From: a virus | Strand: one strand, 5' to 3' | Length of the DNA: 64,000 bases | Virus record (IMG/VR): IMGVR_UViG_3300023296_001674 | In this document: positions 4,160 through 31,432 of the stretch, piece by piece | Position numbering within the stretch: the first letter of the stretch is position 1 | Layout: every line of letters begins with the position of its first letter | Translations under genes and position numbers: made by a program | Notes under the pieces: model-generated | What the model was told of the DNA's origin: nothing | Seen by the model: only the letters and a program-made list of their open reading frames with translations | Databases searched by the model: none

Positions 4160-4206
4160 TTGACATAGCCCCTTGACTTCCCTACTATACTGGTAGGGAG
4201 GGATGA
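4160..4206 (+). promoter_or_regulatory. AGGGAGGGATGA-class promoter, copy A
   Basis: -35 TTGACA 4160-4165, 17-nt spacer, -10 TACTAT 4183-4188, 6 nt, 12-mer AGGGAGGGATGA 4195-4206. Confidence 0.6.
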
Positions 4207-4325
4207 GGTTTATTTGGCTGCGAAAAATAACTGCACCAAAATGAAATAAAGTATTGACACCTTCTATCCAACCTGTATAATACCCACAGATTGAACGAAA
4301 CGACTTACCCCGAAGGAACGAACAA

Positions 4326-4664
4326 ATGGCTGATTCAAATTTTGTAGCGAAGCGAGTAGATGCCGGTGTCCCAATATGGACAATATTTGCTTACGGTAGG
4401 GACATTGGTTCTGCTACGGTTTTCGATTGGGAAGACGAAGGCCCAATGGCAACTGTTCGTTATGGGTATGATGATTTACCAGTTACGTTTTCGGGTTCTT
4501 CTATACGCGATGTATTGGCTAAGGTTGGCGCATTTTTGCGCACCATTGATTCTGATATGGAAGGCGAAGCCGCCGCCGAGTATTATAGCGAAGTTACAGG
4601 ACCAATGGAAGCGGCGGAGCGTTTAGCAGAACGCGGGTATCGGGATGATGACCCTATTTGGTAA
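4326..4664 (+). CDS. Hypothetical protein
   Basis: ORF track. Promoter TTGACA 4254-4259 / TATAAT 4276-4281, RBS GAAGGAA. Confidence 0.7.
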   Translation: MADSNFVAKRVDAGVPIWTIFAYGRDIGSATVFDWEDEGPMATVRYGYDDLPVTFSGSSIRDVLAKVGAFLRTIDSDMEGEAAAEYYSEVTGPMEAAERLAERGYRDDDPIW

Positions 4665-4727
4665 TAGGGGTTGACATTAGGAATTGGGTGGTCTATAACG
4701 CCCTGAACTTAACAAAGGAACAAACAA

Positions 4728-4952
4728 ATGTATAGCGTATATGATAGTTCGAGAGACCCGCGCATGGTAATACCCGAAGTTATGGCACGGACTGTATTCG
4801 ATAGTATTATCGGCGAGTGGAAAATTGCCAAGTTAAAGGGTGGCGAAACTGAACGACGGTTTAAAGTTAAAGAATCGGCGCAATTCGTATTCGATAAACT
4901 TGGCGGTTTTACTATTTGTTTTATTGAAGGCGACTTAATAATTAAGGGTTGA
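4728..4952 (+). CDS. Hypothetical protein
   Basis: ORF track. Promoter TTGACA 4671-4676 / TATAAC 4694-4699, RBS AAAGGAA. Confidence 0.7.
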   Translation: MYSVYDSSRDPRMVIPEVMARTVFDSIIGEWKIAKLKGGETERRFKVKESAQFVFDKLGGFTICFIEGDLIIKG

Positions 4953-5002
4953 CTCGCCCAATCCAATAGGCTATACAATAGGTCAACCAACGGAGAGAGA
5001 TT

Positions 5003-6511
5003 ATGCAAATACCAGAAATCACACTTTCAACGCAGCAAGTTAATATTCTTGATTGGGTTAAATCAGGAAAAGGTAATGTCATTATCGAAGCTGTAGCTGG
5101 CAGTGGTAAGACCTTCACATTGGTTGAAGCCGTTAAGTTGATGGTAGGCACTGTATTCCTTGGTGCTTATAACTCTGCTATGGGTTATGAGTTGAAGGAA
5201 AAAACCAAGGGCATGAAAAATGTTCGGGCTGGCACGTTCCATAGTGCAGGCTTTGGCGCACTTCAATATCGTTACGGAAAAATGCAAGTTGATGCTAACA
5301 AAGTGCGAGATATCGTTAATGGTATGGCGGAGGGCGACGACTTGTTTGCTGTATACGGCAACTTCATTAACAAGATGGTAGCACTTGCCAAGGATTCCGG
5401 CATTGGGTTCTTTAATAAAATTAACGACCCTATCATGTGGAATGAACTTGTTGATAAGCACGACCTTATGGATCAACTCGACGAACACTTAACAGTTGAT
5501 GTTGGTATTCAGTTATCAATGGACGTCTTAAAGGCATCTAACTCTAATCTTAAAGTTATTGATTTTAGTGATATGATTTATCTTGTATTGTTAAACAACC
5601 TCCGCCTTTTCCAACAAGATTGGGTTTTGGTTGACGAAGCCCAAGATACCAATAGCACGCGACGCGCACTGGCAAAGAAAATGTTAAAACCCGGTGGGCG
5701 TTTGATCGCGGTTGGTGATCCTCGCCAAGCAATCTTTGGCTTCACTGGTGCTGATTCCGATGCGCTGGACTTGATCTCCAAGGACTTCGGTACAACGACG
5801 CTTCCTTTGACTAGCACGTTCCGTTGCCCTAAATCGGTTGTTAAACACGCCCAACAATGGGTATCACACATTGAAGCGTATGATACTAATATCGAAGGCG
5901 AAGTTATCAACGCTAAATTCGACGACGTGTTCGGTGAAAAATCCGAATATAAGTTTACCGGTTCCGATGCAATCATTTGCCGCCTTAACGCGCCTATCGT
6001 TGAACTTGCATTCAAGTTGATTCGTAAGGGTGTTCCTTGCCGCATTGAAGGTAGAGATATCGGCACACAACTTGCAGCACTTGCAAACAAGTGGAAAGTA
6101 GTCCGCCTTGACGCCTTACGCAATCGCCTTGAGAAGTATAAGGAACGTGAAGTATCTAAGGCTATGGCAAAAGGGCAAGAACAGAAAGCCGGTAGCATTA
6201 CTGACCGCGTGGGCTGCCTTAATGTTCTTATCGAACGCGCCGAAGAAAAGAAACTTGACGTTGCTGGTTTGATTGTAATGATCAAGGGCATGTTTTCAGA
6301 CGCCCAAGATAAAACCACAAATAAGAACATTTTGGTTTTATCATCCGTTCATAAATCAAAAGGTAAAGAATGGCCTAGAGTGTTCTTGTTAGGACGCCAA
6401 GAAAATATGCCAAGTCCTTTTGCTAGACAGACATGGCAACTTTTACAAGAGGATAACCTTATCTACGTTGCTGTAACGAGGGCGATGGAAACGTTAATCG
6501 AAGTGGATTAA
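5003..6511 (+). CDS. UvrD/Rep-type superfamily 1 DNA helicase
   Basis: Walker A AVAGSGKT, VLVDEAQD, VGDPRQAIFGFTGA, SVHKSKGKEW, IYVAVTRA. Promoter TTGACT 4949-4954 / TATACA. Confidence 0.9.
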   Translation: MQIPEITLSTQQVNILDWVKSGKGNVIIEAVAGSGKTFTLVEAVKLMVGTVFLGAYNSAMGYELKEKTKGMKNVRAGTFHSAGFGALQYRYGKMQVDANKVRDIVNGMAEGDDLFAVYGNFINKMVALAKDSGIGFFNKINDPIMWNELVDKHDLMDQLDEHLTVDVGIQLSMDVLKASNSNLKVIDFSDMIYLVLLNNLRLFQQDWVLVDEAQDTNSTRRALAKKMLKPGGRLIAVGDPRQAIFGFTGADSDALDLISKDFGTTTLPLTSTFRCPKSVVKHAQQWVSHIEAYDTNIEGEVINAKFDDVFGEKSEYKFTGSDAIICRLNAPIVELAFKLIRKGVPCRIEGRDIGTQLAALANKWKVVRLDALRNRLEKYKEREVSKAMAKGQEQKAGSITDRVGCLNVLIERAEEKKLDVAGLIVMIKGMFSDAQDKTTNKNILVLSSVHKSKGKEWPRVFLLGRQENMPSPFARQTWQLLQEDNLIYVAVTRAMETLIEVD

Positions 6512-6536
6512 CTATGGTTTTTTGATAAATACTTAT

Positions 6537-7271
6537 ATGGTAAAACGCAAAACAACAGAACAGTTTATACAAGAATCGACTGCAATTCATGGTGATGTAT
6601 ATGATTATTCATTGACCAATTATATCAATAGACGTACCAAAGTAAAAATAATATGCACCGTTCATGGTATATATGAACAAACTGCGGGAAATCATTTATA
6701 TCAAAAACAAGGTTGCTCAAAATGTGCCGGTGATAAACAGGCATCGAGACAGCGAAAATCACTATCACAGTTTATTCAAGAGGCAACAATAGTTCACGAT
6801 TCTTTATATGATTATTCGTTGGTGGATTACAATCATACTGATATAAAAGTAAAAATAATATGCCCAACGCATGATATATTTAAGCAAACGCCGCATGATC
6901 ATTTACATGGAAAAGGTTGCCCTAAATGCGTTCATACTATATCAAAAGGTGAAACTAACTGGCTTAATCGCATTGGTTTACCAGACGATACACAACATAG
7001 ACAAGTGCGCTTGCCTATGAATAATAATAAAAATCGAAGGGTTGATGGTTATGATCCATTAACCAATACTGTTTATGAATTTCATGGTGATTACTGGCAT
7101 GGCAACCCCGCACGTTTTAATCTCGATGATATAAACCCAACCATTAAAAAACCATACAGACAACTCTATGAAGCCACCTTAACCAAGGAAGTGCTTATCA
7201 AAGATTCCGGTTATAATCTTGTAGTTATGTGGGAGCATGATTGGAAAGCTCATCCCTCCCTAACAGTATAA
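6537..7271 (+). CDS. Homing endonuclease, two Zn-ribbon repeats plus Vsr/PD-(D/E)XK-like nuclease domain
   Basis: MVKRKTTEQFIQESTAIHGDVYDYSL...KVKIICTVHG...CSKC repeated twice, then DGYDPLTNTVYEFHGDYWHGNP. Paralog of 11698-12435. Starts 26 nt after the helicase stop with no promoter of its own. Confidence 0.8.
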   Translation: MVKRKTTEQFIQESTAIHGDVYDYSLTNYINRRTKVKIICTVHGIYEQTAGNHLYQKQGCSKCAGDKQASRQRKSLSQFIQEATIVHDSLYDYSLVDYNHTDIKVKIICPTHDIFKQTPHDHLHGKGCPKCVHTISKGETNWLNRIGLPDDTQHRQVRLPMNNNKNRRVDGYDPLTNTVYEFHGDYWHGNPARFNLDDINPTIKKPYRQLYEATLTKEVLIKDSGYNLVVMWEHDWKAHPSLTV

Positions 7272-7296
7272 TATTAAATTACTCGTAAAAAAGCAA
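7250..7296 (-). promoter_or_regulatory. AGGGAGGGATGA-class promoter, copy B (overlaps the 3' end of the homing endonuclease ORF)
   Basis: Minus strand: TTGCTT (7296-7291), 17 nt, TATTAT (7273-7268), 6 nt, 12-mer at 7261-7250. Confidence 0.45.
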
Positions 7297-7404
7297 TGAT
7301 TATTTTTATAATATGACGTAAATTACTTGTTGACATTGGTTCAGTTAGTTTGTAATATCTTTTTATCAGAACATCATACATTCACAAATGAAAGATTGAA
7401 AATA

Positions 7405-7824
7405 ATGCCAACATATCGAAAAAGAATACTCATATCAGAATTCGCTGAACCAGAAATATTTTTTGAATATAAAGGTGTGAAAATATATCATACTTATACA
7501 GACAATGCTGAAACACTTTCATCATTGAATTTTGACCGTGATTGTAAAAGCAAGCGGTTGTTTACCACGAACAAAAAATGCGGCATGGTTCCCATGTTTG
7601 ATGTTTATTTTGAAAACGATCTTCGTGTATGGGACAAACAATCAAAAAATGAAACCCGTGGGGTGTTTAACATTCAAAACATTCCAAATCCTAAAGGGCA
7701 TCATATTACGACTCATGCTGGTATTTCAAGAGTTCTTATGGAAGCAATTGACACCGGTTGGATTAAAACTAATAAAACACCAGAGTGTATTCACGATTGT
7801 CATATACTCGCACATCCAAAATAA
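7405..7824 (+). CDS. Hypothetical protein
   Basis: Track ORF trimmed to ATG 7405, downstream of promoter TTGACA 7330-7335 / TAATAT 7353-7358. Confidence 0.65.
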   Translation: MPTYRKRILISEFAEPEIFFEYKGVKIYHTYTDNAETLSSLNFDRDCKSKRLFTTNKKCGMVPMFDVYFENDLRVWDKQSKNETRGVFNIQNIPNPKGHHITTHAGISRVLMEAIDTGWIKTNKTPECIHDCHILAHPK

Positions 7825-8147: not shown

Positions 8148-8345
8148 ATGCAAACTTATACCACCCCACGCTTAACGAACATAAGTGATACATTTCGCGC
8201 CGACGTTGCTGCGGGTGAATTAACTACATGGTGTGAAGAAAACAGTGTAGGTGCTTGGTTCATCCACGCCGTTGATCATGTGGAGTTTGAATTCCCCACA
8301 GATGCCAAACAATTTATGATGAAGTTTTGGGAGCTAGACTCCTAA
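8148..8345 (+). CDS. Hypothetical protein
   Basis: ORF track; RBS AAGGAAAA; followed by a terminator. Confidence 0.7.
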   Translation: MQTYTTPRLTNISDTFRADVAAGELTTWCEENSVGAWFIHAVDHVEFEFPTDAKQFMMKFWELDS

Positions 8346-8439
8346 AAATCCCCCCGCATGTTCCTACGCAAGTAATGAAGACACTCCATGCGGGGGTTCT
8401 TTTTGTTTTGGCGCACCCAAAAAAAGCTCATCCCTCCCT
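8344..8439 (-). ncRNA. Predicted ~96-nt RNA from copy C, ending at the shared terminator. Carries micro-ORF MSFFWVRQNKKNPRMECLHYLRRNMRGDF.
   Basis: Predicted +1 at A 8439. Hairpin 8396-8350 followed by a U-run on the minus strand. Confidence 0.35.
8350..8405. terminator. Bidirectional rho-independent terminator
   Basis: ccccccgcatg (8350-8360) pairs with catgcggggg (8388-8396). T-run after, A-run before. Confidence 0.75.
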
Positions 8440-8473
8440 ATCAGCATAATAGCAGGGTCAATAGATAAGTCAA
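8428..8473 (-). promoter_or_regulatory. AGGGAGGGATGA-class promoter, copy C
   Basis: Minus strand: TTGACT (8473-8468), 16 nt, TATTAT (8451-8446), 6 nt, 12-mer 8439-8428. Confidence 0.6.
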
Positions 8474-8550
8474 CCATTATTATTAAAAATAAACCATTGA
8501 CAACGGCTTTTGTATTTTATATAATATATAGATTGAAAAGGAGAATTGAA

Positions 8551-11301: not shown

Positions 11302-11704
11302 AGCCGTAACGCAATATGAAACATTCGACGGAAAAGTATTCTCCGACGAAAATGCCGCTGAACAATGGGAACGCAATACAAATAAAGCAAACGCAATCAT
11401 ATCGATGTTTCCGAACAACGGTCATCTTTCATCTGGCGATTTCTATCAGTTATCAAGAGATTTGATTAGCACCGCGAGAATTAAACTTGCCGATGCTTTA
11501 ACTCGTGGCGGCTTCGATGACGAAATGATTAAAGCATTTCGTGATAATACCAGCGATGTAATCGGACGCTATCTCGACGACGGCGGTTCAACATATTATA
11601 AAGCATGGTGGTTATTTTCTTGTATTGACAATCAAGGGCGGATGTTCAATCAACCGTTCTTTGCCAATAATCCAAGAGAAATAAGAGATGAAGTTTCCTA
11701 TTGA
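11294..11704 (+). CDS. Hypothetical protein
   Basis: ORF track; 8-nt overlap with the previous gene. Confidence 0.7.
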   Translation: MPKAVTQYETFDGKVFSDENAAEQWERNTNKANAIISMFPNNGHLSSGDFYQLSRDLISTARIKLADALTRGGFDDEMIKAFRDNTSDVIGRYLDDGGSTYYKAWWLFSCIDNQGRMFNQPFFANNPREIRDEVSY

Positions 11705-12435
11705 TTCTTCCAATCATTTTCCCATATCGTGACAAGATTATAGCCGTGAGATTTAATAAGAGTCTCACGGTTCATAGTCTTTTGATATAACTCGCCGAAT
11801 GATTTTTTATTATTGGTGTTGATATGTTCGGGATTGTGTGTATTAGGATTCCCATGCCAATAATCACCATAGAACTCATATATGGTATTTGTGTCAGGGT
11901 CATAACCGTCTGGATATATCCATTGATTATTTAATATTAAAGTTCGTCGCCTATAATCATTTGTATCAGGTAATCCAATATGATCAAGCCACGATTTTTC
12001 CATATATGATTTATTCTGTATAGTTAATGGTCGCAACATAATGGCGCACTTATTACATCCATGATTTAAATGTGCTGATGGTTCTTGTTGAAATATTCCA
12101 TGTTCAGGGCAAATGATATTCACCTTTGTATGCGTGTTATGATAATCAACTAATGAATAATTATATTTATCGCCATGTTTTATCAACGATTTTTGTATAA
12201 ATTTTAATGTAGTTCCCCGTATTTTATCTGAATTATTTTTTATTGCACATTTAATACAGCCTTTTCCACTACTAGTGTGCGAACAAGGCGTCTGTTCAAA
12301 TATTCCATGAGTTGTGCATATTATTTTAACTTTGGTATGGGCGGCAATATATATAGACAATGAATAGTCATATCTATCACCATGAATGGCGATAGCATCT
12401 TGAATGAATTTTGAGGTAGTTTTTCTTCTTGACAT
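11698..12435 (-). CDS. Homing endonuclease, two Zn-ribbon repeats plus Vsr/PD-(D/E)XK-like nuclease domain
   Basis: MSRRKTTSKFIQDAIAIHGDRYDYSL...KVKIICTTHG...CIKC repeated twice, then DGYDPDTNTIYEFYGDYWHGNP. Lone minus-strand gene within a + strand gene array. Confidence 0.85.
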   Translation of the reverse strand: MSRRKTTSKFIQDAIAIHGDRYDYSLSIYIAAHTKVKIICTTHGIFEQTPCSHTSSGKGCIKCAIKNNSDKIRGTTLKFIQKSLIKHGDKYNYSLVDYHNTHTKVNIICPEHGIFQQEPSAHLNHGCNKCAIMLRPLTIQNKSYMEKSWLDHIGLPDTNDYRRRTLILNNQWIYPDGYDPDTNTIYEFYGDYWHGNPNTHNPEHINTNNKKSFGELYQKTMNRETLIKSHGYNLVTIWENDWKNQ

Positions 12436-18200: not shown

Positions 18201-18246
18201 TTGACTTATCTATTGACTCTGTTATTATACTGGTAGGGAGGGATGA
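18201..18246 (+). promoter_or_regulatory. AGGGAGGGATGA-class promoter, copy D
   Basis: TTGACT 18201-18206, 16 nt, TATTAT 18223-18228, 6 nt, 12-mer 18235-18246. The -35 lies in the right arm of the 13-bp hairpin agataagtcaacc/ggttgacttatct (18177-18211). Confidence 0.6.
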
Positions 18247-18338
18247 CCTTTTTATAAATAAAATGATTAAAATAAGGTGTTGACTATGATTCACTTATCC
18301 TTTATAACTGAACCAACGCTTTAACAAGGAGATTTTTT

Positions 18339-18569
18339 ATGAGTGTATTCAAAGACGTTCCAAAGATTGTTTGGACTAATTTTTATTTGGTCGTTGATAC
18401 GGCGGAGTTGGAATATGTCGATAATGGACGCGCTTATCGTGTTAAAGATGATTTTTTGAAAGAAGAATATCTTACCGCCAAGTCAGAAGGATGTTGTGGA
18501 TTTTTCGACACTGTTATCTTTGACGATATTGGTGACGAATGGATGGTTGGTTGCAATCACGGGCATTGA
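18339..18569 (+). CDS. Hypothetical protein
   Basis: ORF track. Promoter TTGACT ~18281 / TATAAC. RBS AAGGAG. Confidence 0.7.
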   Translation: MSVFKDVPKIVWTNFYLVVDTAELEYVDNGRAYRVKDDFLKEEYLTAKSEGCCGFFDTVIFDDIGDEWMVGCNHGH

Positions 18570-19451: not shown

Positions 19452-19556
19452 ATGAGAAACGAAGGCACACTCGAAGAACGATATGAAATTTATAAAACCA
19501 ACGCGGAACTTTTGGGTTGGTACATTAAAACTTTTGATGAATGGATGAACAGCTAA
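19452..19556 (+). CDS. Small hypothetical protein (34 aa)
   Basis: Not in the ORF track. GGAG RBS at 19441-19445. MRNEGTLEERYEIYKTNAELLGWYIKTFDEWMNS. Terminator follows. Confidence 0.5.
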   Translation: MRNEGTLEERYEIYKTNAELLGWYIKTFDEWMNS

Positions 19557-19621
19557 AAAGGAGACGGGGTTCGCCCCGTTTTCTTTTAGGTATATATTCC
19601 AGAAAAAACTCATCCCTCCCT
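19555..19621 (-). ncRNA. Predicted ~67-nt RNA from copy E (micro-ORF MSFFWNIYLKENG...)
   Basis: Predicted +1 at 19621. Ends at hairpin 19579-19564 plus a U5 run. Confidence 0.35.
19564..19587. terminator. Bidirectional terminator
   Basis: acggggttcgccccgt hairpin, T-rich after and A5 before. Confidence 0.75.
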
Positions 19622-19655
19622 ACCGTAATAATACCACAATCAACCAAAGAGTCAA
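19610..19655 (-). promoter_or_regulatory. AGGGAGGGATGA-class promoter, copy E
   Basis: Minus strand: TTGACT (19655-19650), 16 nt, TATTAT (19633-19628), 6 nt, 12-mer 19621-19610. Confidence 0.6.
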
Positions 19656-19899: not shown

Positions 19900-20445
19900 A
19901 TGAAAATCAAACACGCAAAATTCGGACTGGCAGCAAAGAACATCAAGGTATCTGATACGGATGATGGATATATGTGGAGTGCATCTTTTTATCTTGATGG
20001 TGCAAAAATTGGAACTGCACACGATCAAGGGCATGGCGGCGAAATGAATACACGCGGCATAGATAAAACGGCAATGGCGAAAATCGAAACATATGCGGCA
20101 AGTTTGCCACATGATACCACTTACGGACTCGATATGGCACAAAGTGCCGAAATTGTTCTTGAAGAAAACGCAATGAGTACCGATTCATTCAACAGCGTTC
20201 TAAAGAAAACAAAAGCCGCATTGCGAAAGAAAGTTATGGCAAAAGGTAATAAAGAAGGAATTTTTCGCACTTGGAAAATTCCCACTGGTATGACTGCTGA
20301 AACGAAAATGACTAAACTCCGCGAACAAAAAATCGGTGAAACGTTTGAATTTTTGAACGAACTACCACCAGAAGATGCAATGGATTTTCTTTATGTGGTT
20401 GAACCAGAACCCGATTTTAGCAAGCCGTTTGAACTGGTAACATAA
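19900..20445 (+). CDS. Hypothetical protein
   Basis: ORF track. Promoter TTGACT 19838-19843 / TATGTT 19861-19866. Confidence 0.75.
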   Translation: MKIKHAKFGLAAKNIKVSDTDDGYMWSASFYLDGAKIGTAHDQGHGGEMNTRGIDKTAMAKIETYAASLPHDTTYGLDMAQSAEIVLEENAMSTDSFNSVLKKTKAALRKKVMAKGNKEGIFRTWKIPTGMTAETKMTKLREQKIGETFEFLNELPPEDAMDFLYVVEPEPDFSKPFELVT

Positions 20446-20455
20446 GTAAAACAAA

Positions 20456-20482
20456 GGGTGGGGATATTCCCCATCCTTTTTT
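20456..20482. terminator. Bidirectional terminator
   Basis: gggtgggga/tccccatcc hairpin, then T6. Confidence 0.7.
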
Positions 20483-20507
20483 ACATCCATTAACATCCAT
20501 AAAATGC

Positions 20508-20554
20508 TCATCCCTCCCTATCATCACAATACGACCTAACTGTATCAAAGTCAA
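20508..20554 (-). promoter_or_regulatory. AGGGAGGGATGA-class promoter, copy F
   Basis: Minus strand: TTGACT (20554-20549), 17 nt, TATTGT (20531-20526), 6 nt, 12-mer 20519-20508. Confidence 0.55.
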
Positions 20555-20618
20555 CACTTATTTTTCACTTGACATATAATATTTTAATGGTATTATACTT
20601 ACAGAAAGGACAAAAATT

Positions 20619-21514: not shown

Positions 21515-21554
21515 TTGACTCTGGTGTAGTTAGTTCGTATATTAACTACACCAG
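21515..21554 (+). promoter_or_regulatory. Stem-loop promoter (12-bp perfect palindrome arms)
   Basis: TTGACT 21515-21520, 17 nt, TATATT 21538-21543. Arms ctggtgtagtta 21521-21532 and taactacaccag 21543-21554. Identical copy at 29314-29353. Confidence 0.7.
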
Positions 21555-21570
21555 AACAAAGGAACTGAAT

Positions 21571-25381: not shown

Positions 25382-25427
25382 TTGCATTATCGATTGACTC
25401 GTGTATGATCATATCAGGGAGGGATCA
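25382..25427 (+). promoter_or_regulatory. AGGGAGGGATGA-class promoter, copy G (variant AGGGAGGGATCA)
   Basis: TTGCAT 25382-25387, 16 nt, TATGAT 25404-25409, 6 nt, 12-mer 25416-25427. Confidence 0.5.
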
Positions 25428-25577
25428 GCGTTTTTTATGGCGCAAGATTATTACAAAATTAAGTGAAACAAAGTAATAAAATAATGCATTATTCGGTTGA
25501 CCATGTTACAGTTATTTGCTATATTTAAATTGTTCCAAGGCACTAACGCCTAACACAGATTGAAAGGGAACCACAAA

Positions 25578-26054
25578 ATGTTAAACCGCAACCAAGTAAA
25601 TGAGATTTTAGCCCCGCTTAACGGAAACACGTTTATCGGCTTAACCGCCACAACGATTCCAAAATTAACTGGCGGCAAGAAAAACGATATGCAGGGTGAA
25701 ATCACCAAACGCACCGTTTCTGTTGTTCAGGTTTTCCAGAACAAATCCACGAACGGATATGAAAACAAGCGCTTGAAAGCGAATCCAGACTTCAAATTGG
25801 GTGATCGCCCTTGGGGAACACGCGTTAAAGGAACACCGTTCATTGAACATAAAGGCGCGGATTACATGGAAGTAATTTTCGTAAGCACCGATTCAGTTGA
25901 TTATTTTCGCAATGGCGAACCAATCGAAAAAGATCAAATCGTTGGTTTGCCTGCCAGCCGCCCCGCTGGTGATACGGATAATGTAATTATTCGAACATAT
26001 AAACTGGAAAGCATCGATTCACTTCGGGCGTTTGGGGCGGAATACACCGCCTAA
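25578..26054 (+). CDS. Hypothetical protein
   Basis: Track ORF trimmed to ATG 25578 after AAAGGGAA. Promoter TTGACC 25497-25502 / TATATT 25520-25525. Confidence 0.7.
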   Translation: MLNRNQVNEILAPLNGNTFIGLTATTIPKLTGGKKNDMQGEITKRTVSVVQVFQNKSTNGYENKRLKANPDFKLGDRPWGTRVKGTPFIEHKGADYMEVIFVSTDSVDYFRNGEPIEKDQIVGLPASRPAGDTDNVIIRTYKLESIDSLRAFGAEYTA

Positions 26055-26073
26055 CCGATTCATACAAGGAAAA

Positions 26074-26104
26074 GAAAGTCAAGAGAAATCTTGACTTTCT
26101 TTTC
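26074..26104. terminator. Bidirectional terminator carrying TTGACT in its arm
   Basis: gaaagtcaaga-gaaa-tcttgactttc, then T-run. The same core agtcaagagaaatcttgact recurs at 27839-27858. Confidence 0.75.
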
Positions 26105-26153
26105 GATTCATTTGTTCACGTTTTGTTCTTATAAGATGATACCCAAAAAAAAC

Positions 26154-26201
26154 TCATCCCTCCCTGATACAAAATTACCACGTTTACCCCATACGAGTCA
26201 A
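26154..26201 (-). promoter_or_regulatory. AGGGAGGGATGA-class promoter, copy H
   Basis: Minus strand: TTGACT (26201-26196), 18 nt, TAATTT (26177-26172), 6 nt, 12-mer 26165-26154. Confidence 0.55.
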
Positions 26202-26595: not shown

Positions 26596-26627
26596 GAAAA
26601 GAAATCGGCGCGGGGGCAAATTAGCCC

Positions 26628-26674
26628 TTGCGCCTTTTTTTGTTTCGTGGTATAAAATCCGTAGGGGGGGATGA
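26628..26674 (+). promoter_or_regulatory. AGGGAGGGATGA-class promoter, copy I (variant AGGGGGGGATGA)
   Basis: TTGCGC 26628-26633 (in the terminator arm), 17 nt, TATAAA 26651-26656, 6 nt, 12-mer 26663-26674. Confidence 0.45.
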
Positions 26675-26712
26675 GCCGATTTTATCATCAAAATTTATTT
26701 TAATAATAGTGC

Positions 26713-26772
26713 ATTTAGGGGGTTGACTCATCTGATGCCTACCTTTATAACTACAAATAGAAACCAACCACA
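26713..26772 (+). repeat. 60-bp direct repeat (promoter plus UTR cassette), copy 2
   Basis: Identical to 26218-26277. TTGACT 26723-26728 / TATAAC 26746-26751. Confidence 0.9.
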
Positions 26773-26790: not shown

Positions 26791-27168
26791 ATGCAAAAAG
26801 TAATCGCCCACATCGAAGCAATCAACGCAGCAACCGGCAGCACTTGGGTTTTGAACGCGGATCATTGGGCTGGCTACGAAATAACCACACCCGAAGCGTT
26901 TGATCGTTATGTGCTTACCACAAGCATTTGGGATGCATACAAATATGGCTTGGGCTTTAAGCCACACGGCATGATGATGGAAGCAATGAGCATGGAACAG
27001 TTGGAACGCGAACTGGAAAGCGTTCGCGCTTCAATCGATGCGAACGCCGAACACGAAGCCGAACGGGAACGGGTGAACAATTTCACTTGGCAAGAACATC
27101 TTGCTTGCGCCAACATGCCAGCAATGGCAAACGACTCCCCCTTCGCAGTGTTGCAGGGGGTGCGATAA
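26791..27168 (+). CDS. Hypothetical protein
   Basis: ORF track; RBS GAAGGAA. Confidence 0.7.
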   Translation: MQKVIAHIEAINAATGSTWVLNADHWAGYEITTPEAFDRYVLTTSIWDAYKYGLGFKPHGMMMEAMSMEQLERELESVRASIDANAEHEAERERVNNFTWQEHLACANMPAMANDSPFAVLQGVR

Positions 27169-27182
27169 CCAACCGAAAGGGG

Positions 27183-27205
27183 CGGGGGATTTTCCCCCGT
27201 TTTTT
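27183..27205. terminator. Terminator hairpin
   Basis: cggggga-ttt-tcccccg, then T6. Confidence 0.7.
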
Positions 27206-27229
27206 CGCGCCAGCAATTCCAAAAAAAAG

Positions 27230-27277
27230 ACATCCCTCCCTATGGTGATATTAGCACTATTGCCCAAACAGAGTCAA
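27230..27277 (-). promoter_or_regulatory. AGGGAGGGATGA-class promoter, copy J (variant AGGGAGGGATGT)
   Basis: Minus strand: TTGACT (27277-27272), 18 nt, TAATAT (27253-27248), 6 nt, 12-mer 27241-27230. Confidence 0.55.
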
Positions 27278-27431: not shown

Positions 27432-27821
27432 ATGGATTCATTAAACGTTTTTGCGGATTCGAAAGTTGGCGATGGTGCAACGATCAATATGTATAGCGAT
27501 TCAAAGGCTTGCACGATTGTGGCGATTAGTGATAAGCGTATCACGGTTCAATATGACGATGTTAAATTGTTGAACGGTGCGAAATCTGGCGAACCCGATG
27601 CACTGGTTTTTGATGTAGGCGGATTTTCCGCACACTGTTCAGGTCGCCAGCGTTGGGAAACAACACCAAACCCCGAAGGCGGCAAGGTGACTTATTCCCT
27701 GCGCAAGTGGAACGACTACAAAAATGAACCAGTTATGCGGTGGGCACCAGTTGGCAGCAAACGCCACGAAGGTTCAGGCTTAACCGAAGGAAGGCATCAC
27801 CACTACGATTTCAATTTCTAG
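27432..27821 (+). CDS. Hypothetical protein
   Basis: ORF track. Promoter TTGACT 27370-27375 / TAATAT 27393-27398. Confidence 0.75.
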   Translation: MDSLNVFADSKVGDGATINMYSDSKACTIVAISDKRITVQYDDVKLLNGAKSGEPDALVFDVGGFSAHCSGRQRWETTPNPEGGKVTYSLRKWNDYKNEPVMRWAPVGSKRHEGSGLTEGRHHHYDFNF

Positions 27822-27836
27822 GCACAAGGAAAAAGG

Positions 27837-27870
27837 AGAGTCAAGAGAAATCTTGACTTTTCTTTTTTTA
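27837..27870. terminator. Bidirectional terminator carrying TTGACT in its arm
   Basis: agtcaaga-gaaa-tcttgact (27839-27858), then a T-rich run. Confidence 0.75.
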
Positions 27871-27893
27871 TTTTTTCCGCCGCCAAAAAAAGG

Positions 27894-27939
27894 TCATCCC
27901 TCCCTACCACCATAATACACTATTCGAACAACGAGTCAA
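27894..27939 (-). promoter_or_regulatory. AGGGAGGGATGA-class promoter, copy K
   Basis: Minus strand: TTGACT (27939-27934), 16 nt, TATTAT (27917-27912), 6 nt, 12-mer 27905-27894. Confidence 0.6.
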
Positions 27940-27947: not shown

Positions 27948-28074
27948 ACGGGGAACCACGAATGATTCCCCGTTTTCTTTTCTATAATGGCTTGGCTTGC
28001 CGTGTCGCCAGACGATTAGATCATGATGTCAAATCCTTCCGTTAATTTTTATCCGGTGTTTGAACTTACTCTCT
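27948..28074 (-). ncRNA. Candidate ~125-nt small RNA, with similarity to the homing-endonuclease leader
   Basis: Minus promoter AAGTGTTGACA (28107-28102), 16 nt, TATTAT (28085-28080). Terminator acggggaa/ttccccgt (27948-27973). Contains ACACCGGA...CGGAAGGAUUUGACAUCAUGAUCUAA, a two-codon ORF. Confidence 0.4.
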
Positions 28075-28180
28075 ACACCATAATACATTAAACAAAATAG
28101 ATGTCAACACTTATTTTAGGGGTTGACACTAACAATCGAAACCGCTATAACTGTATCAACTTAACCAAAAGGAACACCCA

Positions 28181-28390
28181 ATGTCAAACCAAGCATTTGT
28201 AGTTTATAACGGCAAAATCACAGTCAAGACTGAGATTTACGACGGCGGTTTATATTTCGCCGACACCGTGAAAGAAGTGACACAACGCTTGCGCGATTGC
28301 GAGACGTTGGTTGTTAAATCTGGCAGTGAACGCGACCTTAAGAAAATCGTCACCGTCGCCGACCTTTTCACAAACAATCCCCAAGGATAA
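28181..28390 (+). CDS. Hypothetical protein
   Basis: ORF track. Promoter TTGACA 28123-28128 / TATAAC 28146-28151. Confidence 0.7.
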   Translation: MSNQAFVVYNGKITVKTEIYDGGLYFADTVKEVTQRLRDCETLVVKSGSERDLKKIVTVADLFTNNPQG

Positions 28391-28394
28391 GACA

Positions 28395-28889
28395 ATGTCA
28401 AATCCCAAACACATAAACGATTTTTGCAAAGAACTTCGCGCACTTATGGAAAAGCACGGAATTGATTCATTAGGTGTCGAAATTGAGGGCGACACACACG
28501 GCATAAGTGAACAATTCGTTATCGATGATAATCAAAATAAAACACACGTGATCGACGGATTTTCAAGTTATTTGGATAAATCAGATTTGCGTGATTATAT
28601 CGAAGTAACCAGCGAATTATTGAAACGCGACGACGTTCAATTTGTTATCAACGATTTGCAAGATGATGGAGAAGAAAGTTCCGCTAAACTTTTTGAAGAC
28701 TATATCATCAAAGCGGAAAACAACGGCTTAAACATCGACCAAGCATTCCAAGGCACTATCGCACTAAGGGAAGCAATGAATATTATGGGAAGTTATTTCG
28801 ACGCCCTGAATACTAATAATCTTGTTTTTGTTAATCAAATCAATGCGATTGATTCAGCAATGCTACATTATAAAGATAGTTTAAAATAA
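28395..28889 (+). CDS. Hypothetical protein
   Basis: Track ORF 28311-28889 trimmed to ATG 28395 after AAGGA. Confidence 0.7.
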   Translation: MSNPKHINDFCKELRALMEKHGIDSLGVEIEGDTHGISEQFVIDDNQNKTHVIDGFSSYLDKSDLRDYIEVTSELLKRDDVQFVINDLQDDGEESSAKLFEDYIIKAENNGLNIDQAFQGTIALREAMNIMGSYFDALNTNNLVFVNQINAIDSAMLHYKDSLK

Positions 28890-28950
28890 CCGTTGACACT
28901 GGTACATGAAACCGATATAACTGTATCAACTTAACCAAAAGGATCATATC

Positions 28951-29310
28951 ATGGAAACAATATCGCGGTTTTATGCGCACGCTGGCAAAATTGCCATAAC
29001 GATTGGCGCGGGTGATACTACATATATCACCACAGACCAAGCCGAAATGATCGGCGCTAAATTATCTGAACTTGCCAGTCAAGTGAAAAACGGCAATCAT
29101 TCGACTACGGTTGAAGTTCCCGCAACTGAAGAACAAATGAAACGGATGCGTGAGGATGCGCCCGAAATTTATAAAATCATTCGTTGTTATCGCAATGGCA
29201 ATAGCCCCCGCACAATTGCACGTAGTGTAACGATTTTCGAAGCGCAAGAACATTGTAGCGATCCATCAACCTCAAACACCAAATATTTTGATGGATATGA
29301 GTTGAAATAG
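28951..29310 (+). CDS. Hypothetical protein
   Basis: ORF track. Promoter TTGACA 28893-28898 / TATAAC 28916-28921. Confidence 0.7.
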   Translation: METISRFYAHAGKIAITIGAGDTTYITTDQAEMIGAKLSELASQVKNGNHSTTVEVPATEEQMKRMREDAPEIYKIIRCYRNGNSPRTIARSVTIFEAQEHCSDPSTSNTKYFDGYELK

Positions 29311-29313
29311 GTC

Positions 29314-29353
29314 TTGACTCTGGTGTAGTTAGTTCGTATATTAACTACACCAG
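29314..29353 (+). promoter_or_regulatory. Stem-loop promoter (second copy of the 21515 cassette)
   Basis: TTGACT 29314-29319, TATATT 29337-29342. Arms 29320-29331 and 29342-29353. Confidence 0.7.
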
Positions 29354-29370
29354 AACAAAGGAACAAACAA

Positions 29371-29511
29371 ATGTCAAACGCTGAAATGTATCTCGATTGG
29401 GTTAACAATTTTTTAACTGTTGCACGGTTCGCCGAATATTACAATATCTCCGAGACCGAAGCTCTTGCCGTGATCGAAAAAGGTCGCATCGACCACCACG
29501 CAAATCTGTAA
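29371..29511 (+). CDS. Small hypothetical protein (46 aa)
   Basis: Not in the ORF track. AAAGGAA RBS. MSNAEMYLDWVNNFLTVARFAEYYNISETEALAVIEKGRIDHHANL. Confidence 0.6.
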   Translation: MSNAEMYLDWVNNFLTVARFAEYYNISETEALAVIEKGRIDHHANL

Positions 29512-29529
29512 ACAACGAAAGACAAACCC

Positions 29530-29829
29530 ATGCAAGTCACAACCGAACAACTCGAAACTTTCCTAACTAAAGCGCAAGCACATGTAAACGCTGATTACAG
29601 CACTAACTTTGAAGGCGATGCGCCAACACTTTCGATTGACCCAATGACCGAACGATCTAAGTACGCCAAAATCGTGAAAGATACCGGTCAACGTTCATTG
29701 TGGGGTTTCGTTGAACTATCAACCGGCAATCTGTTGACAGGCAGTTGGAAAGCACCACGCAAATCAAAATCAACATGCGGTCATATTGACGAGCCATTCT
29801 TACCACGGACTCGCTGGATGAGTGTATAA
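29530..29829 (+). CDS. Hypothetical protein
   Basis: ORF track. Confidence 0.7.
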   Translation: MQVTTEQLETFLTKAQAHVNADYSTNFEGDAPTLSIDPMTERSKYAKIVKDTGQRSLWGFVELSTGNLLTGSWKAPRKSKSTCGHIDEPFLPRTRWMSV

Positions 29830-29895
29830 TAAACCCTTGACTCTGATTCAGTTATTCTTTATAACTGAATAATCAGAACAACGAAAGAAAATCCA

Positions 29896-30072
29896 ATGGT
29901 AGGCAAACTTAATTTTCGTGTATTCCAAGATGGCAAACAACACATTGTTTCCGCACGTAGCATCGTGGTTCGTTTTGAACAAGGTGCATTCATATCAGCT
30001 AACATAAGACAAGATAGTGCCGAATATCTTGAAGCATGTGAAGCAATGGTTAAACATGATATGGGCGAATGA
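29896..30072 (+). CDS. Small hypothetical protein (58 aa)
   Basis: Not in the ORF track. Promoter TTGACT 29837-29842 / TATAAC 29860-29865. MVGKLNFRVFQDGKQHIV... Confidence 0.6.
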   Translation: MVGKLNFRVFQDGKQHIVSARSIVVRFEQGAFISANIRQDSAEYLEACEAMVKHDMGE

Positions 30073-30073
30073 T

Positions 30074-30253
30074 ATGACTGAAATTGCACAAGGCACTGAA
30101 GTCAAATTAAAATTCATTAACGGCGAAAATCGTTATGGCGCACTTATGGATAATCGAAAAAAACATTTGATTTATCGCCCCGTTGATGGTATCAATACCA
30201 TTGTTTTTCATAAAGACTTGAAAAGTGTTGCACCCGTATATATTCCATCTTAA
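30074..30253 (+). CDS. Small hypothetical protein (59 aa)
   Basis: Track ORF 30017-30253 trimmed to ATG 30074, directly after the previous stop. Confidence 0.6.
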   Translation: MTEIAQGTEVKLKFINGENRYGALMDNRKKHLIYRPVDGINTIVFHKDLKSVAPVYIPS

Positions 30254-30282
30254 TAAAAACAACAGCCGGAGTCACTTAGGTG

Positions 30283-30328
30283 TTGACTCCGGCATTTTTC
30301 CTGCTAATATACTATCAGGGAGGGATGA
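30283..30328 (+). promoter_or_regulatory. AGGGAGGGATGA-class promoter, copy L
   Basis: TTGACT 30283-30288 (inside the right arm of terminator hairpin ccggagtca/tgactccgg, 30266-30292), 16 nt, TAATAT 30305-30310, 6 nt, 12-mer 30317-30328. Confidence 0.6.
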
Positions 30329-30444
30329 GTAAAATTCGCCCCGAAAAAAACTTTCATTTTATTTCATTTAAGGGGTTGACTCTGATCGGGTTGGGTAGTA
30401 ATATCACTACATCAAAACAAACCAACAACCCAAGGAACAAAACC

Positions 30445-31029
30445 ATGGCAACCGATAAAAATGGCTTAACACTTTCAAACGCTTCTGATTCTGGTTATAA
30501 ATTTGTAACTACTTTGTTTGAAGGACCGCTGGCTGGAAAGTTCGTCGCCTTCGCGGATGTTAAAACCGCCGAATTGCAACGCCTGAACAAATCTCACGCG
30601 CACGGAATAAACGGTTTCTTTGGATTCAAAAACGTTGTTCCGTTGGGCGTTTTCGATGATGTGCGCGACGCCGCATACGTTGGACAAACATTCCACGCAG
30701 GGAACGCAGATGACCGCGACGACAACCTTGCCGAATTATACGCTGGCAATGAGTCAGTTATCCCTAAATCATTGACCGATTGGGATAATCCCGCCGATGT
30801 TACTTCAATGAAAAAAGCCGCAACCCGCGCAAAAACCCGACGCATGGGTAAAACATTCGATGCAAAAAAAGCCGAGACCGCAATCGATAAGTTTGCCAAC
30901 AATTTCAAATCATACAAAATCGGTAACATGGATGTCCGCGTAATCTTGGAACGCATGAAAGAACTGTTTGATAACGGAACAAGCTTAACCCTTTCCGCCG
31001 AAACCGTTTGCTCCGATTACCAGCGATAA
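30445..31029 (+). CDS. Hypothetical protein, possible AP2-like DNA-binding domain
   Basis: Track ORF trimmed to ATG 30445 after AAGGAA. SGYKFV...GKFVAF...LGVFDDVRDAAYV resembles the AP2/HNH-associated fold, recalled by eye only. Confidence 0.6.
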   Translation: MATDKNGLTLSNASDSGYKFVTTLFEGPLAGKFVAFADVKTAELQRLNKSHAHGINGFFGFKNVVPLGVFDDVRDAAYVGQTFHAGNADDRDDNLAELYAGNESVIPKSLTDWDNPADVTSMKKAATRAKTRRMGKTFDAKKAETAIDKFANNFKSYKIGNMDVRVILERMKELFDNGTSLTLSAETVCSDYQR

Positions 31030-31032
31030 CCC

Positions 31033-31073
31033 TTGACTCTGGTGTAATTGATAAGTATAATTGATTACACCAG
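31033..31073 (+). promoter_or_regulatory. Stem-loop promoter
   Basis: TTGACT 31033-31038, 17 nt, TATAAT 31056-31061. Arms ctggtgtaat 31039-31048 and attacaccag 31064-31073. Confidence 0.7.
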
Positions 31074-31090
31074 AACAAAAGGAATTTAAC

Positions 31091-31363
31091 ATGGATAAAC
31101 GCGATGTGATTGTAATTTGCGTTGGCAGTGCCGCCGATGATATACGCGCACTTAATCACGCAACAAACTCCGCAGTTCTAGTCGTTGAAGATAAACCCGC
31201 AATTCACGAAATGGCATTGATGGATGATATATTTTTAACCGATGAAGCAAAAGATATGTTTGTGCTTGAATTAATCGAAGACGCGTTGCCAAAGAATTTT
31301 CTAAGTGAACCAAAACCCCGAAAGGCTTGGAAAAACGAATTCGAAAATCTAGGTCGTAAATAA
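31091..31363 (+). CDS. Hypothetical protein
   Basis: Track ORF trimmed to ATG 31091 after AAAGGAA. Confidence 0.7.
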   Translation: MDKRDVIVICVGSAADDIRALNHATNSAVLVVEDKPAIHEMALMDDIFLTDEAKDMFVLELIEDALPKNFLSEPKPRKAWKNEFENLGRK

Positions 31364-31386
31364 ATCAAAACCAGAGTCACTTAGGT

Positions 31387-31432
31387 GTTGACTCTGGATT
31401 TCTTTCTGCTATTATACTGTCAGGGAGGGATG
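31387..31432 (+). promoter_or_regulatory. AGGGAGGGATGA-class promoter, copy M
   Basis: TTGACT 31387-31392 (in the right arm of hairpin ccagagtca/tgactctgg, 31371-31396), 16 nt, TATTAT 31409-31414, 6 nt, 12-mer 31421-31432. Confidence 0.6.

Follow-up and report, generated by a model that had tools for sequence, protein, structure and literature searches.

The 64,000-nucleotide (nt) stretch of viral DNA analyzed here, which is referred to below as the window, was taken from IMG/VR virus record IMGVR_UViG_3300023296_001674. The early-gene region of the genome to which it belongs carried a family of at least 14 predicted strong promoters of the host type. Most of these promoters served no gene of their own, and the predicted RNA of each began with AGGGAGGGAU, a look-alike of a ribosome-binding site. 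We refer to each promoter plus its conserved transcribed start as an element and to the conserved start itself as the tag. The sequence comparisons presented below indicated that the element family is real, strongly non-random, and maintained by evolution.

The region that carried the elements consisted of a run of about 70 small plus-strand genes, most of them ORFans, and it contained sigma-A-type promoters, AAAGGA ribosome-binding sites, and many bidirectional terminators. Based on these predicted signals, we consider it a Firmicute-style early module. Phage-like genes coded for a UvrD-type helicase, HNH/DUF723 homing endonucleases, tail-fiber-like proteins, a methyltransferase, and a ligase; further genes coded for an ArdC/MPTase-PolyVal protein and an ART-PolyVal protein, and an rIIB-like gene and neighboring large genes lay just left of the window. 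Directly after the ArdC/MPTase-PolyVal and ART-PolyVal genes (31673-33755), at about position 34000, the GC content dropped from about 0.40 to about 0.33 and the gene orientation switched, which marked the right edge of the early module. The genome seemed to be circular or permuted and about 570 kb long, a size typical of huge phages: proteins of the window were recovered from two contigs, one 570,549 bp and the other 570,750 bp in length, whose end points differed, and the ENA contig ended inside the window. A megablast search of 12 kb against GenBank phages yielded no match, and two protein-based IMG/VR scans yielded nothing close. In the 64-kb window, no Rfam match was obtained at the gathering threshold, and no tRNA or tmRNA was found.

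The 12-mer AGGGAGGGATGA was present at 13 sites in the window when up to one mismatch was allowed (10 exact copies and three with a single substitution), the same count as in a first-pass annotation of this DNA. Dinucleotide-preserving shuffles gave a mean of 0.14 sites and a maximum of 1. Allowing two mismatches added no site in the window, the 10-mer AGGGAGGGAT at up to one mismatch returned the identical 13 window sites (1.7 expected), and an nhmmer profile of 29 copies (28 unique) detected no further divergent copy in the window. The coordinates given in the first-pass annotation agreed with ours for 12 copies, and the last copy had to be moved from 31421-31432 to 31422-31433. That annotation had also placed no copy right of 31.5 kb, and the remaining 32 kb of the window indeed contained none. 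Its list was complete for the window but not for the family: a 14th copy was located in the same genome about 4.4 kb left of window position 1 (contig L048, 4786-4862, leftward), with the tag AGGGAGGGATGA (L048 4807, minus strand) followed by GTTTTTTCTGG. With this copy, the family extended over at least 36 kb.

The window elements and the features associated with them are listed here in order. Tandem elements point in the direction of the plus-strand genes, leftward elements point against it, and all transcripts and terminators are predictions.

4160 to 4217, + strand: element 1, tandem; -35 TTGACA, 17-nt spacer, -10 TACTAT, then 6 nt to the tag
4195 to 4206, + strand: element 1 tag AGGGAGGGATGA, then GGTTTATTTGG; transcript enters the ordinary promoter at 4254 and reaches the gene at 4326, with a 131-nt leader
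7239 to 7296, - strand: element 2, leftward; tag at 7250-7261; run of T residues (T-run) and terminator replaced by the 3' end of an endonuclease gene
8417 to 8473, - strand: element 3, leftward; tag at 8428-8439, followed by GCTTTTTTTGG; diverges from the adjacent ordinary promoter at 8497
8344 to 8396, - strand: bidirectional terminator of the gene at 8148-8345 and of element 3; predicted RNA of about 95 nt
18201 to 18257, + strand: element 4, tandem; tag at 18235-18246; -35 within the 3' arm of the inverted repeat AGATAAGTCAACC / GGTTGACTTATCT; transcript enters the promoter at 18280 and reaches the gene at 18339
19599 to 19655, - strand: element 5, leftward; tag at 19610-19621, then GTTTTTTCTGG
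19555 to 19579, - strand: terminator of element 5; predicted RNA of about 65-70 nt
20497 to 20554, - strand: element 6, leftward; tag at 20508-20519, followed by GCATTTTATGG; diverges from the adjacent ordinary promoter at 20569
20448 to 20476, - strand: bidirectional terminator of the gene at 19900-20445 and of element 6; predicted RNA of about 72 nt
25382 to 25438, + strand: element 7, tandem; variant tag AGGGAGGGATCA at 25416-25427; transcript enters the promoter at 25497
26143 to 26201, - strand: element 8, leftward; tag at 26154-26165, then GTTTTTTTTGG
26065 to 26104, - strand: bidirectional terminator of the gene at 25560-26054 and of element 8; predicted RNA of about 100 nt
26628 to 26685, + strand: element 9, tandem; variant tag AGGGGGGGATGA at 26663-26674; -35 TTGCGC within the 3' arm of the terminator at 26607-26634; transcript enters the promoter at 26723 and reaches the gene at 26791
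27219 to 27277, - strand: element 10, leftward; variant tag AGGGAGGGATGT at 27230-27241, then CTTTTTTTTGG
27176 to 27199, - strand: bidirectional terminator of the gene at 26791-27168 and of element 10; predicted RNA of about 65 nt
27883 to 27939, - strand: element 11, leftward; tag at 27894-27905, then CCTTTTTTTGG
27828 to 27861, - strand: bidirectional terminator of the gene at 27432-27821 and of element 11; predicted RNA of about 80 nt
30283 to 30339, + strand: element 12, tandem; tag at 30317-30328; -35 within the 3' arm of the terminator hairpin GCCGGAGTCA...TGACTCCGGC; transcript enters the promoter at 30376
31388 to 31444, + strand: element 13; tag at 31422-31433; -35 within the 3' arm of the hairpin CCAGAGTCA...TGACTCTGG; next gene downstream ArdC-like, at 31673-32593
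31464 to 31497, + strand: terminator-like bidirectional hairpin that would end the element 13 RNA at about 75 nt

In all 13 window copies, a -10-like hexamer ended 6 nt ahead of the motif (TATTAT in six copies, TAATAT in two, and TACTAT, TATGAT, TATAAA, TAATTT, and TATTGT in one each). A -35 hexamer was located 16 to 18 nt upstream of the -10; it was TTGACx in 10 copies and TTGCxx in three, and eight of the 13 copies had an extended -10 (TGn). The 6 nt between the -10 and the motif were variable, with a pyrimidine at -1 followed by A at +1. The information content was below 1.3 bits from -6 to -1 and reached 2.0 bits exactly at +1. A generic promoter scan independently recovered the -35/-10 hexamer pairs of the elements, and every copy in the window and in relatives had the features of a sigma-A/sigma-70-type promoter with a predicted start. 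About 25 ordinary gene promoters of the region lacked the motif, had diverse starts, and were skipped by the nhmmer profile. Because the distance from the -10 to the motif was fixed while the -35/-10 spacer varied from 16 to 18 nt, the promoter reading was well supported at the sequence level. The conserved unit began exactly at the predicted start site, so the predicted transcripts would all begin with pppAGGGAGGGAU, usually followed by GA-GC-UUUUU-n-U(GG). The promoter anatomy described in the first-pass annotation (the -35 classes and their spacing, the 6-nt distance, the first A as the predicted +1, and the lack of the motif in ordinary promoters) thus stood up in each respect.

The constrained core of the tag was the 10-mer AGGGAGGGAT, from +1 to +10. 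Positions 11 and 12, and hence the ATG, varied among relatives (CG, AA, AC, GT, TG, and GG at these positions; 12-mer endings including ATAA, ATAC, ATGT, ATTG, and ATCG), and the first-pass description of an invariant 12-mer therefore applied to the 10-mer but not to the last two positions. Rare purine-to-purine changes were observed in relatives at positions 2, 3, 5, and 6, and all four substitutions in positions 1 to 8 were purine to purine, although these numbers were small. Across the contigs of all relatives, the variants were AGAGAGGGAT, AAGGAGGGAT, and AGGGAAGGAT, the last of which came from L022, a contig found by the motif scan. Beyond the tag, G(C/T)TTTTTnTGG was conserved from +13 to +23; the T-run, plus TGG in the leftward copies, spanned +15 to +23. 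TTTTT-N-TGG was kept in 13 of 14 leftward copies, and tandem copies retained the T-run and mostly lacked TGG. The frequencies at N were T > C > A, a spectrum unlike that of start codons. A box, GAACAAAACGTGAACAAA, with a GAACAAA direct repeat, recurred 30-50 nt downstream of some tags (26111-26128 on the minus strand, its single window occurrence; near 3960 and 9905 in L046; and near 4425 in L026).

A metagenome scan for the promoter-plus-12-mer architecture identified 15 contigs. Metagenome match L024 and the sole genome-collection match, L034, were rejected as elements and classified as ordinary ribosome-binding sites, and IMG/VR motif scans returned only chance single matches or ordinary gene starts with a Shine-Dalgarno (SD) sequence plus ATG. 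The other motif-scan contigs had genes in common with the window, with nucleotide identities of about 66-75%, and carried the GCTTTTT extension, which had not been part of the search. Because these contigs had been selected by the motif, L042, L044, and L046 were fetched by protein homology alone. L042 (129-aa protein, 78% identity) contained four copies, L044 (129-aa protein, 67% identity) contained two, and L046 (ArdC, 72% identity) contained seven; the exact 10-mer was found in 11 of these 13 copies. The protein-fetched relatives had the same promoter architecture, including the phasing of the motif to the -10 that the first-pass annotation had proposed as a check, and the elements were located in the same intergenic spaces. 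No copy was detected in the 10 kb right of the ArdC gene in L046. The element was also absent from the contexts of distant 129-aa homologues in different phages (L039-L041, 45-51% identity), indicating that conservation was limited to the phage group of the window.

Orthologous elements were identified for several window copies. Element 7 was orthologous to an element at L033 position 192, element 11 had orthologues at L042 643 and L044 3021 (both minus strand), and the position of element 13 was conserved at L042 3762 and L046 9861 (both plus strand). The space upstream of the 129-aa gene contained an element in all four genomes. In the window (element 10) and in L044 it pointed leftward, and its counterparts in L042 and L021 were reversed, i.e., tandem. 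Where the gene direction was known, there were about 15 tandem and 14 anti copies in total. The element was kept at the same spaces in either orientation, which argued that the body of the RNA was irrelevant. In ungapped comparisons of orthologues, the 10-mer was the sole block without exception besides the promoter hexamers, the T-run, and the terminators. Face-to-face pairs of tag promoters were observed at L027 270-422 and L030 2357-2509, with starts 59 bp apart and no terminator between them; the first 59 nt of the two predicted RNAs would be fully complementary, and one of the two promoters carried the variant AGGGAGGGATTG.

Orientation flips are also what a selfish or recombinational repeat might produce, i.e., a mobile cassette resembling the promoter-early stem-loops (PeSLs) discussed below, with its 10-mer kept by gene conversion or as a nuclease target. 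The plastic, ORFan-rich region with its overlaps between promoters and stem-loops, the discriminators that differed by lineage (ACTGGT in the window and L042, AATGGT in the SMVA01 and Ga0114949 contigs), and the frequent breaks of metagenome contigs at the element fit this idea, as does the copy that abutted an HNH endonuclease gene. We nevertheless considered it very unlikely. Recent copying would keep the unit identical, but within one genome the -35, spacer, -10, and flanks differed widely around the fixed 10-mer. Moreover, the elements were at orthologous positions in relatives, and only one of 14 copies was next to a homing endonuclease gene. That gene (DUF723/HNH, 6522-7271) ended within the element at 7250 (minus strand) and had a paralogue at 11698-12435 (minus strand).

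Three features favored selection at the transcript level rather than at the DNA level: the information content reached 2 bits exactly at +1 (which the 5' end of a transcript would lead one to expect and a DNA site does not require), the distance from the -10 to the tag was fixed despite indels in the spacer, and either orientation occurred at one locus, so neither the RNA body nor an effect on the neighboring promoter seemed to be the selected property. The same features bear on the proposal of an operator, one of the roles suggested by the first-pass annotation. Here, double-stranded AGGGAGGGAT at +1 to +10 would be the binding site of a phage or host regulator that turns all promoters of this class on or off together, e.g., in a shut-off after the early phase. 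An invariant 10-bp block over +1 is in the classic position of an operator, the motif marked one promoter class among the several sequence families of the region, and an operator could function whichever way the promoter faced. However, the site was non-palindromic and had no second half-site, and an operator gave no reason for conservation to begin exactly at +1 at a fixed 6 nt from the -10. A phage-encoded binder would be expected to drift together with its site at 45-78% protein identity, but the site was constant. The exclusively purine-to-purine substitutions at positions 1 to 8, few as they were, fit a polypurine RNA, and regulation would leave unexplained why the regulated promoters mostly serve no gene. 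An operator thus appeared unlikely.

The elements occupied the boundaries of transcription units, where each was preceded by a terminator and followed by an ordinary promoter and its gene. Leftward copies were back-to-back with the promoter of the next gene and ran into the bidirectional terminator of the previous gene, and the predicted 3' ends of their RNAs were a few nt from the stop codon of that gene. Six of the seven leftward copies ended in the terminator of the converging gene, with predicted RNAs of about 65-100 nt, as the first-pass annotation had estimated. That annotation had all seven firing into terminators, but the RNA of element 2 was predicted to run antisense into the HNH/DUF723 endonuclease gene at 6522-7271 and had no terminator. 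In the tandem copies with tags at 4195, 18235, 26663, 30317, and 31422 (all plus strand), the -35 was inside the 3' arm of a hairpin. The tag was 45-193 bp from the next ordinary -35 in rightward copies, in good agreement with the earlier figure of 40-190 bp, and tandem transcripts would pass through the ordinary promoter into the gene, giving predicted leaders of 104-251 nt. The predicted leaders of the ordinary promoters were 16-39 nt, with the true ribosome-binding site 5-25 nt from the 5' end. The tandem copy at 31422 probably also produced a short RNA because the bidirectional terminator-like hairpin at 31464-31497 followed it. Thus, a promoter and terminator of its own for a discrete short RNA were predicted for six leftward copies and probably for the copy at 31422, and this layout was absent from the other five tandem copies and from the leftward copy at 7250.

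The region also contained strong leftward promoters that had no tag, with -35 hexamers at 31591, 28107, and 19823 (all minus strand) and predicted non-coding RNAs of about 115-150 nt that ended in hairpins. The RNA from the promoter at 31591 was predicted to converge with the element 13 RNA on a common terminator, the hairpin at 31464-31497, which would end both. The ordinary gene promoters formed sequence families (21515-21565 and 29314-29364, as well as 31033, 30376, 27370, 24214, 10818, and 7330). In many of them, an inverted repeat such as CTGGTGTAGTTA...TAACTACACCAG bracketed the -10; this repeat was near-identical at two loci 7.8 kb apart and was PeSL-like. Such repeats may be operators, RNA processing hairpins, or sites of recombination. 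Leaders of ordinary early genes (e.g., 4285-4325, 8530-8550, 25530-25575, and 31645-31672) shared AGATTGAAAcGAAAGGA upstream of the start codon. Their ribosome-binding sites were of the AAAGGA type and almost never GGAGG, in contrast to the tag.

Given this layout, the elements might act at the promoter level only. In that case, the G-rich purine start would be tuned for fast promoter escape, and the gene-less promoters would act via transcription itself, either by reinforcing the terminator through collision or occupancy or by boosting the neighboring promoter (through divergent supercoiling from leftward copies and read-through from tandem copies). The position of the elements between a terminator and an ordinary promoter, in both the window and L046, and the terminator 3' arm over the -35 of tandem copies are consistent with this idea. 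Purine-rich starts are typical of strong phage early promoters, e.g., T7 A1 and T5 N25, and the initial transcribed sequences of these very strong host-type promoters resemble the tag in their GAGGGA-type start; however, they are similar rather than identical and are found on gene promoters. Escape does not require 10/10 identity across diverged lineages, and the ordinary strong promoters of the region started diversely. In addition, the two orientations would affect the neighboring promoter oppositely (occlusion versus divergent supercoiling), and some boundaries with a terminator plus a promoter had no element. An effect of the promoter alone was distinctly unlikely in our judgment.

The short conserved element just past the start, the T-rich tract after it, and the adjoining terminators are features that an antitermination loading site of the ops, nut, or put type might have. 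A factor that renders RNA polymerase insensitive to terminators would be recruited by the exposed 10-mer of the non-template strand, or by the 5' end of the nascent RNA, with the help of a pause at the T-run. TTNTTT is the NusG pause motif of Bacillus, and the T-rich tract after the tag resembled it. Leftward copies of such a site would, however, extend transcription across early genes in the antisense direction, about half of the copies faced away from any operon, and the flips at orthologous loci would rewire which genes are read through. A conserved RNA stem-loop was not found, and the Pfam records of the region included no NusG/RfaH-like or Q/N-like gene. We gave antitermination very little chance. 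Even less probable was an R-loop or primer site, in which the G-rich RNA start would stay on the C-rich template and prime replication or mark the DNA. This was one of the roles suggested by the first-pass annotation, and two G3 clusters were indeed on the non-template strand right at the start, with the T-run and its weak hybrid next. But the G-rich stretch was only 8 nt long and ran into the T-run at once, with no G-rich extension zone; at least 14 origins in 36 kb are implausible; and six leftward copies had ordinary terminators 40-60 nt downstream. We considered such a site extremely unlikely.

We also considered whether the transcripts encoded peptides. The tag contained a single ATG, at +9, and many copies read ATG AGC TTT TT(Y) TGG, which would open a small peptide starting with MSFFW. 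The SD core, however, ended 1 nt ahead of this ATG, a distance that is too close for initiation, and the ATG is dispensable as judged from the alignments: it was replaced by ATC, ATT, or ATA in six of 38 unique copies, in which A9 and T10 were constant. When the same 10-mer was found at +1 in unrelated IMG/VR phages, it was a real SD sequence with an ATG 5-7 nt downstream. Open reading frames (ORFs) starting at +9 or +20 had no conserved length, peptide, or reading frame in the window and the relatives; they ranged from 2 to more than 34 codons, orthologues differed (LGAEK* versus 22 aa), and several ran through the terminator. A start at the NTG at +20 would not help, as this codon was absent from tandem copies. 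The coding mini-ORF, from either start, was rejected on length, peptide, and start codon, and we take coding to be excluded as far as sequence allows; the chance left to a mini-gene was close to negligible. A conserved fold after the tag, with pairing between the U-run and an A-run, was likewise rejected (2.0 pairs versus 1.9 in shuffled tails, p = 0.88).

What set the tag apart as an RNA was its complementarity to the 3' end of 16S rRNA. The duplex of the tag with the anti-SD (GAUCACCUCCUUUCU) had a predicted energy of -13.0 kcal/mol with positions 1-10 paired, assuming a canonical 16S tail from which that of the host may differ. The pairing pattern on the 16S 3' tail was AUC-A-CCUCCUU, with one bulged A, and the variable positions 11 and 12 were just outside it. 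All 42 ribosome-binding-site windows of genes in the region were weaker than the tag (mean, -7.2 kcal/mol; best, -10.0 kcal/mol). The 10-mer was constant across lineages whose proteins were only 43-78% identical, and this constancy suggested, as a weaker point, a slowly evolving partner such as a host component. Among the three roles proposed in the first-pass annotation, a shared 5' tag that mimics an SD sequence provided the best fit to the sequence.

One way in which such a tag might work is in trans. The 14 or more promoters would then form a multi-copy gene family whose sole functional product is the 5' tag, an SD mimic plus a U-tract that acts as a decoy. Candidate targets are the 30S anti-SD tails, a CsrA-like GGA-binding protein, or C-rich (UCCC-type) regulatory RNAs, and host translation or regulation would be reprogrammed early in infection, during takeover. 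Orientation independence and an irrelevant RNA body are what a trans-acting tag predicts, the many copies and strong promoters suit a need for dosage, and the invariance of the tag and its pairing strength relative to every gene of the region are also in line with this reading. Dubey et al. reportedly obtained in 2005 a CsrA consensus with an ARGGAU core by systematic evolution of ligands by exponential enrichment, and we take positions 5-10 of the tag (AGGGAU, or AAGGAU in a variant) to match that core. The partner of the decoy is only hypothetical, however, and producing a decoy by tagging long tandem mRNAs would be expensive for the phage. Sequestration of 30S subunits would harm translation of the phage too, and each RNA had one motif versus the many in known sponges. 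The complement of the tag, at up to two mismatches, was not found in the window outside the elements. We regarded a trans-acting decoy as plausible but fairly unlikely.

The reading that we tentatively favored, while giving it clearly less than an even chance, is that the tag is an RNA-level, non-initiating SD mimic that parks a 30S subunit at the 5' end, by analogy with the element known as STAB-SD. STAB-SD resembles an SD sequence and lies close to the 5' end; rather than serving translation, it binds the 30S subunit and blocks RNase J1 (PMC4113751). The tag was at the predicted +1 in every copy, within the few nucleotides of the 5' end where a STAB-SD is expected. In this proposal, sigma-A-type early promoters packed together with terminators at the transcription-unit boundaries of the early ORFan region would produce RNAs whose first 10 nt base-pair with a 30S subunit seated at the extreme 5' end. 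The seated subunit would hide the 5' end from 5'-end-dependent decay (RppH and, in Firmicutes, RNase J1). The predicted carriers are short terminated RNAs or long-leader mRNAs from PeSL-like promoter/terminator cassettes. For the tandem copies, the tag would protect the transcripts with leaders of 104-251 nt, and ordinary transcripts would be shielded by a ribosome on the genuine ribosome-binding site in their 16- to 39-nt leaders. A stabilizer fits this contrast because the tagged transcripts would otherwise have a long naked 5' end. The leftward copies would yield stable RNAs of 65-100 nt that end in the bidirectional terminator of the neighboring gene, perhaps merely occupying the boundary or perhaps acting collectively in trans.

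Several points weighed against a stabilizing tag. The tag was not the optimal partner for the anti-SD, since AAAGGAGGUGAUC reaches -20.7 kcal/mol and the tag needs a bulged A, and the variants AGAGAGGGAT and AGGGAAGGAT weakened the pairing to -9.8 kcal/mol. In several short RNAs, minimum free energy folds paired the tag partly with the pyrimidine-rich tail of the terminator, and the mean probability that the tag was unpaired ranged from 0.07 to 0.87. A stabilizer acting in cis leaves the upkeep of gene-less promoters at boundaries unexplained, as it does the T-run/TGG block that the leftward copies kept. The leftward non-coding promoters at 31591, 28107, and 19823 manage without a tag. Finally, the argument as a whole is built on predicted transcripts and the assumed canonical 16S tail.

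A polypurine stabilizer in the early RNA of Bacillus phage SP82, reportedly described by Hue et al. in 1995, is said to have been the first of its kind found. Like the tag, the STAB-SD of Bacillus thuringiensis cry3A and the SP82 stabilizer are polypurine, SD-like, 5'-terminal or nearly so, complementary to 16S rRNA, and non-translating, and the SP82 stabilizer is likewise part of a phage early RNA. The tag thus matches STAB-SD in every feature that can be checked in sequence, and stabilization itself is attributed by analogy. The cry3A and SP82 cases are single elements in one mRNA leader and are often exposed by processing. In contrast, the elements described here are present in at least 14 copies, have their own promoter that puts the tag at +1, carry a T-run, and in about half of the cases head gene-less short RNAs.

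The architecture of the elements resembled that of PeSLs. In the T4-type phages RB49 and phi1, PeSLs consist of a strong host-type promoter with an overlapping stem-loop terminator, occur in ORFan-rich, plastic early regions, and have been proposed as substrates for modular shuffling (PMC2839356). Like the elements, they are repeated intergenic cassettes in which the stem-loop can overlap the -35, spacer, or -10, and the rIIA/rIIB-type neighborhood of the window fits a PeSL setting. Unlike the elements, PeSLs end in the SD sequence and start codon of the gene that they drive and have no invariant transcribed motif. The elements are extra to the promoter of the gene, occur in both orientations, and are invariant from +1 to +10. 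Such an SD-plus-start-codon end was not seen in any window copy: seven of 13 face away from the gene, the copy at 31422 is followed by a hairpin about 40 nt after the tag, and the other five tandem copies have a separate ordinary promoter next. Because PeSLs drive the downstream gene and lack an invariant start, the ordinary gene promoters of the region are, by analogy, closer to PeSLs than the elements are. The first-pass statement that the family fits no known element class was therefore too strong, given the match of its architecture to PeSLs (PMC2839356) and the resemblance of its tag to STAB-SD (PMC4113751).

Two further groups of RNAs can be compared with the elements. Sibling small RNAs (Qrr1-5, LhrC1-5, and the streptococcal csRNAs) are also sets of several short RNAs with their own promoter and Rho-independent terminator, in which one short single-stranded motif is conserved and the rest varies. 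They differ in that they share a common fold, are chromosomal, and usually have C/U-rich anti-SD seeds, i.e., the opposite polarity to an SD mimic; half of the tag copies, moreover, are not stand-alone RNAs. Antisense RNAs of the lambda oop type resemble the leftward copies in length (about 70-100 nt), in their constitutive-type promoter and terminator, and in their convergence on the 3' end of an upstream gene. In the leftward copies, however, the overlap is confined to the terminator and 3' untranslated region, and orthologous loci differ in orientation, which excludes antisense pairing as the function under selection.

A full-text literature search for the 12-mer returned only unrelated primer sequences. 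A tag that is multi-copy, promoter-anchored, orientation-free, and largely gene-less is undescribed for STAB-SDs or PeSLs, and the sequence evidence points to an undescribed family of tagged phage RNAs. To our knowledge, the early programs of huge phages are almost unknown. If the tag is a stabilizer, this would be the first phage with a ribosome-binding 5' cap across a whole class of transcription units rather than on one mRNA, and the tag would be a simple, portable RNA stabilizer of 10-23 nt for Gram-positive-type hosts. If it acts in trans, it would represent a new RNA-based strategy of host takeover in huge phages, one without a described precedent. Either way, the element gives one class of early promoters a sharp sequence signature, with which early regions can be located and phased when only fragments of genomes from this phage group are available as metagenomic contigs. 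It also accounts for the break points of those metagenome assemblies.

Two additional loci in contigs of the collection were recorded. At L046 11559-14006, right of the ArdC gene, two proteins with response-regulator receiver domains and a small Sigma70_r4 protein were encoded, and no counterpart of these genes was seen at the corresponding place in the window. L023, a contig of 51% GC with no detectable similarity to the window, contained an ORF-free array of five sigma-A-like promoters at 430-1150. Two of these promoters were tagged and had no T-run (AGGGAGGGATGACCT...), and GGCGAATTGCTTATTTTTAGTTAAGTAA was repeated in the array.

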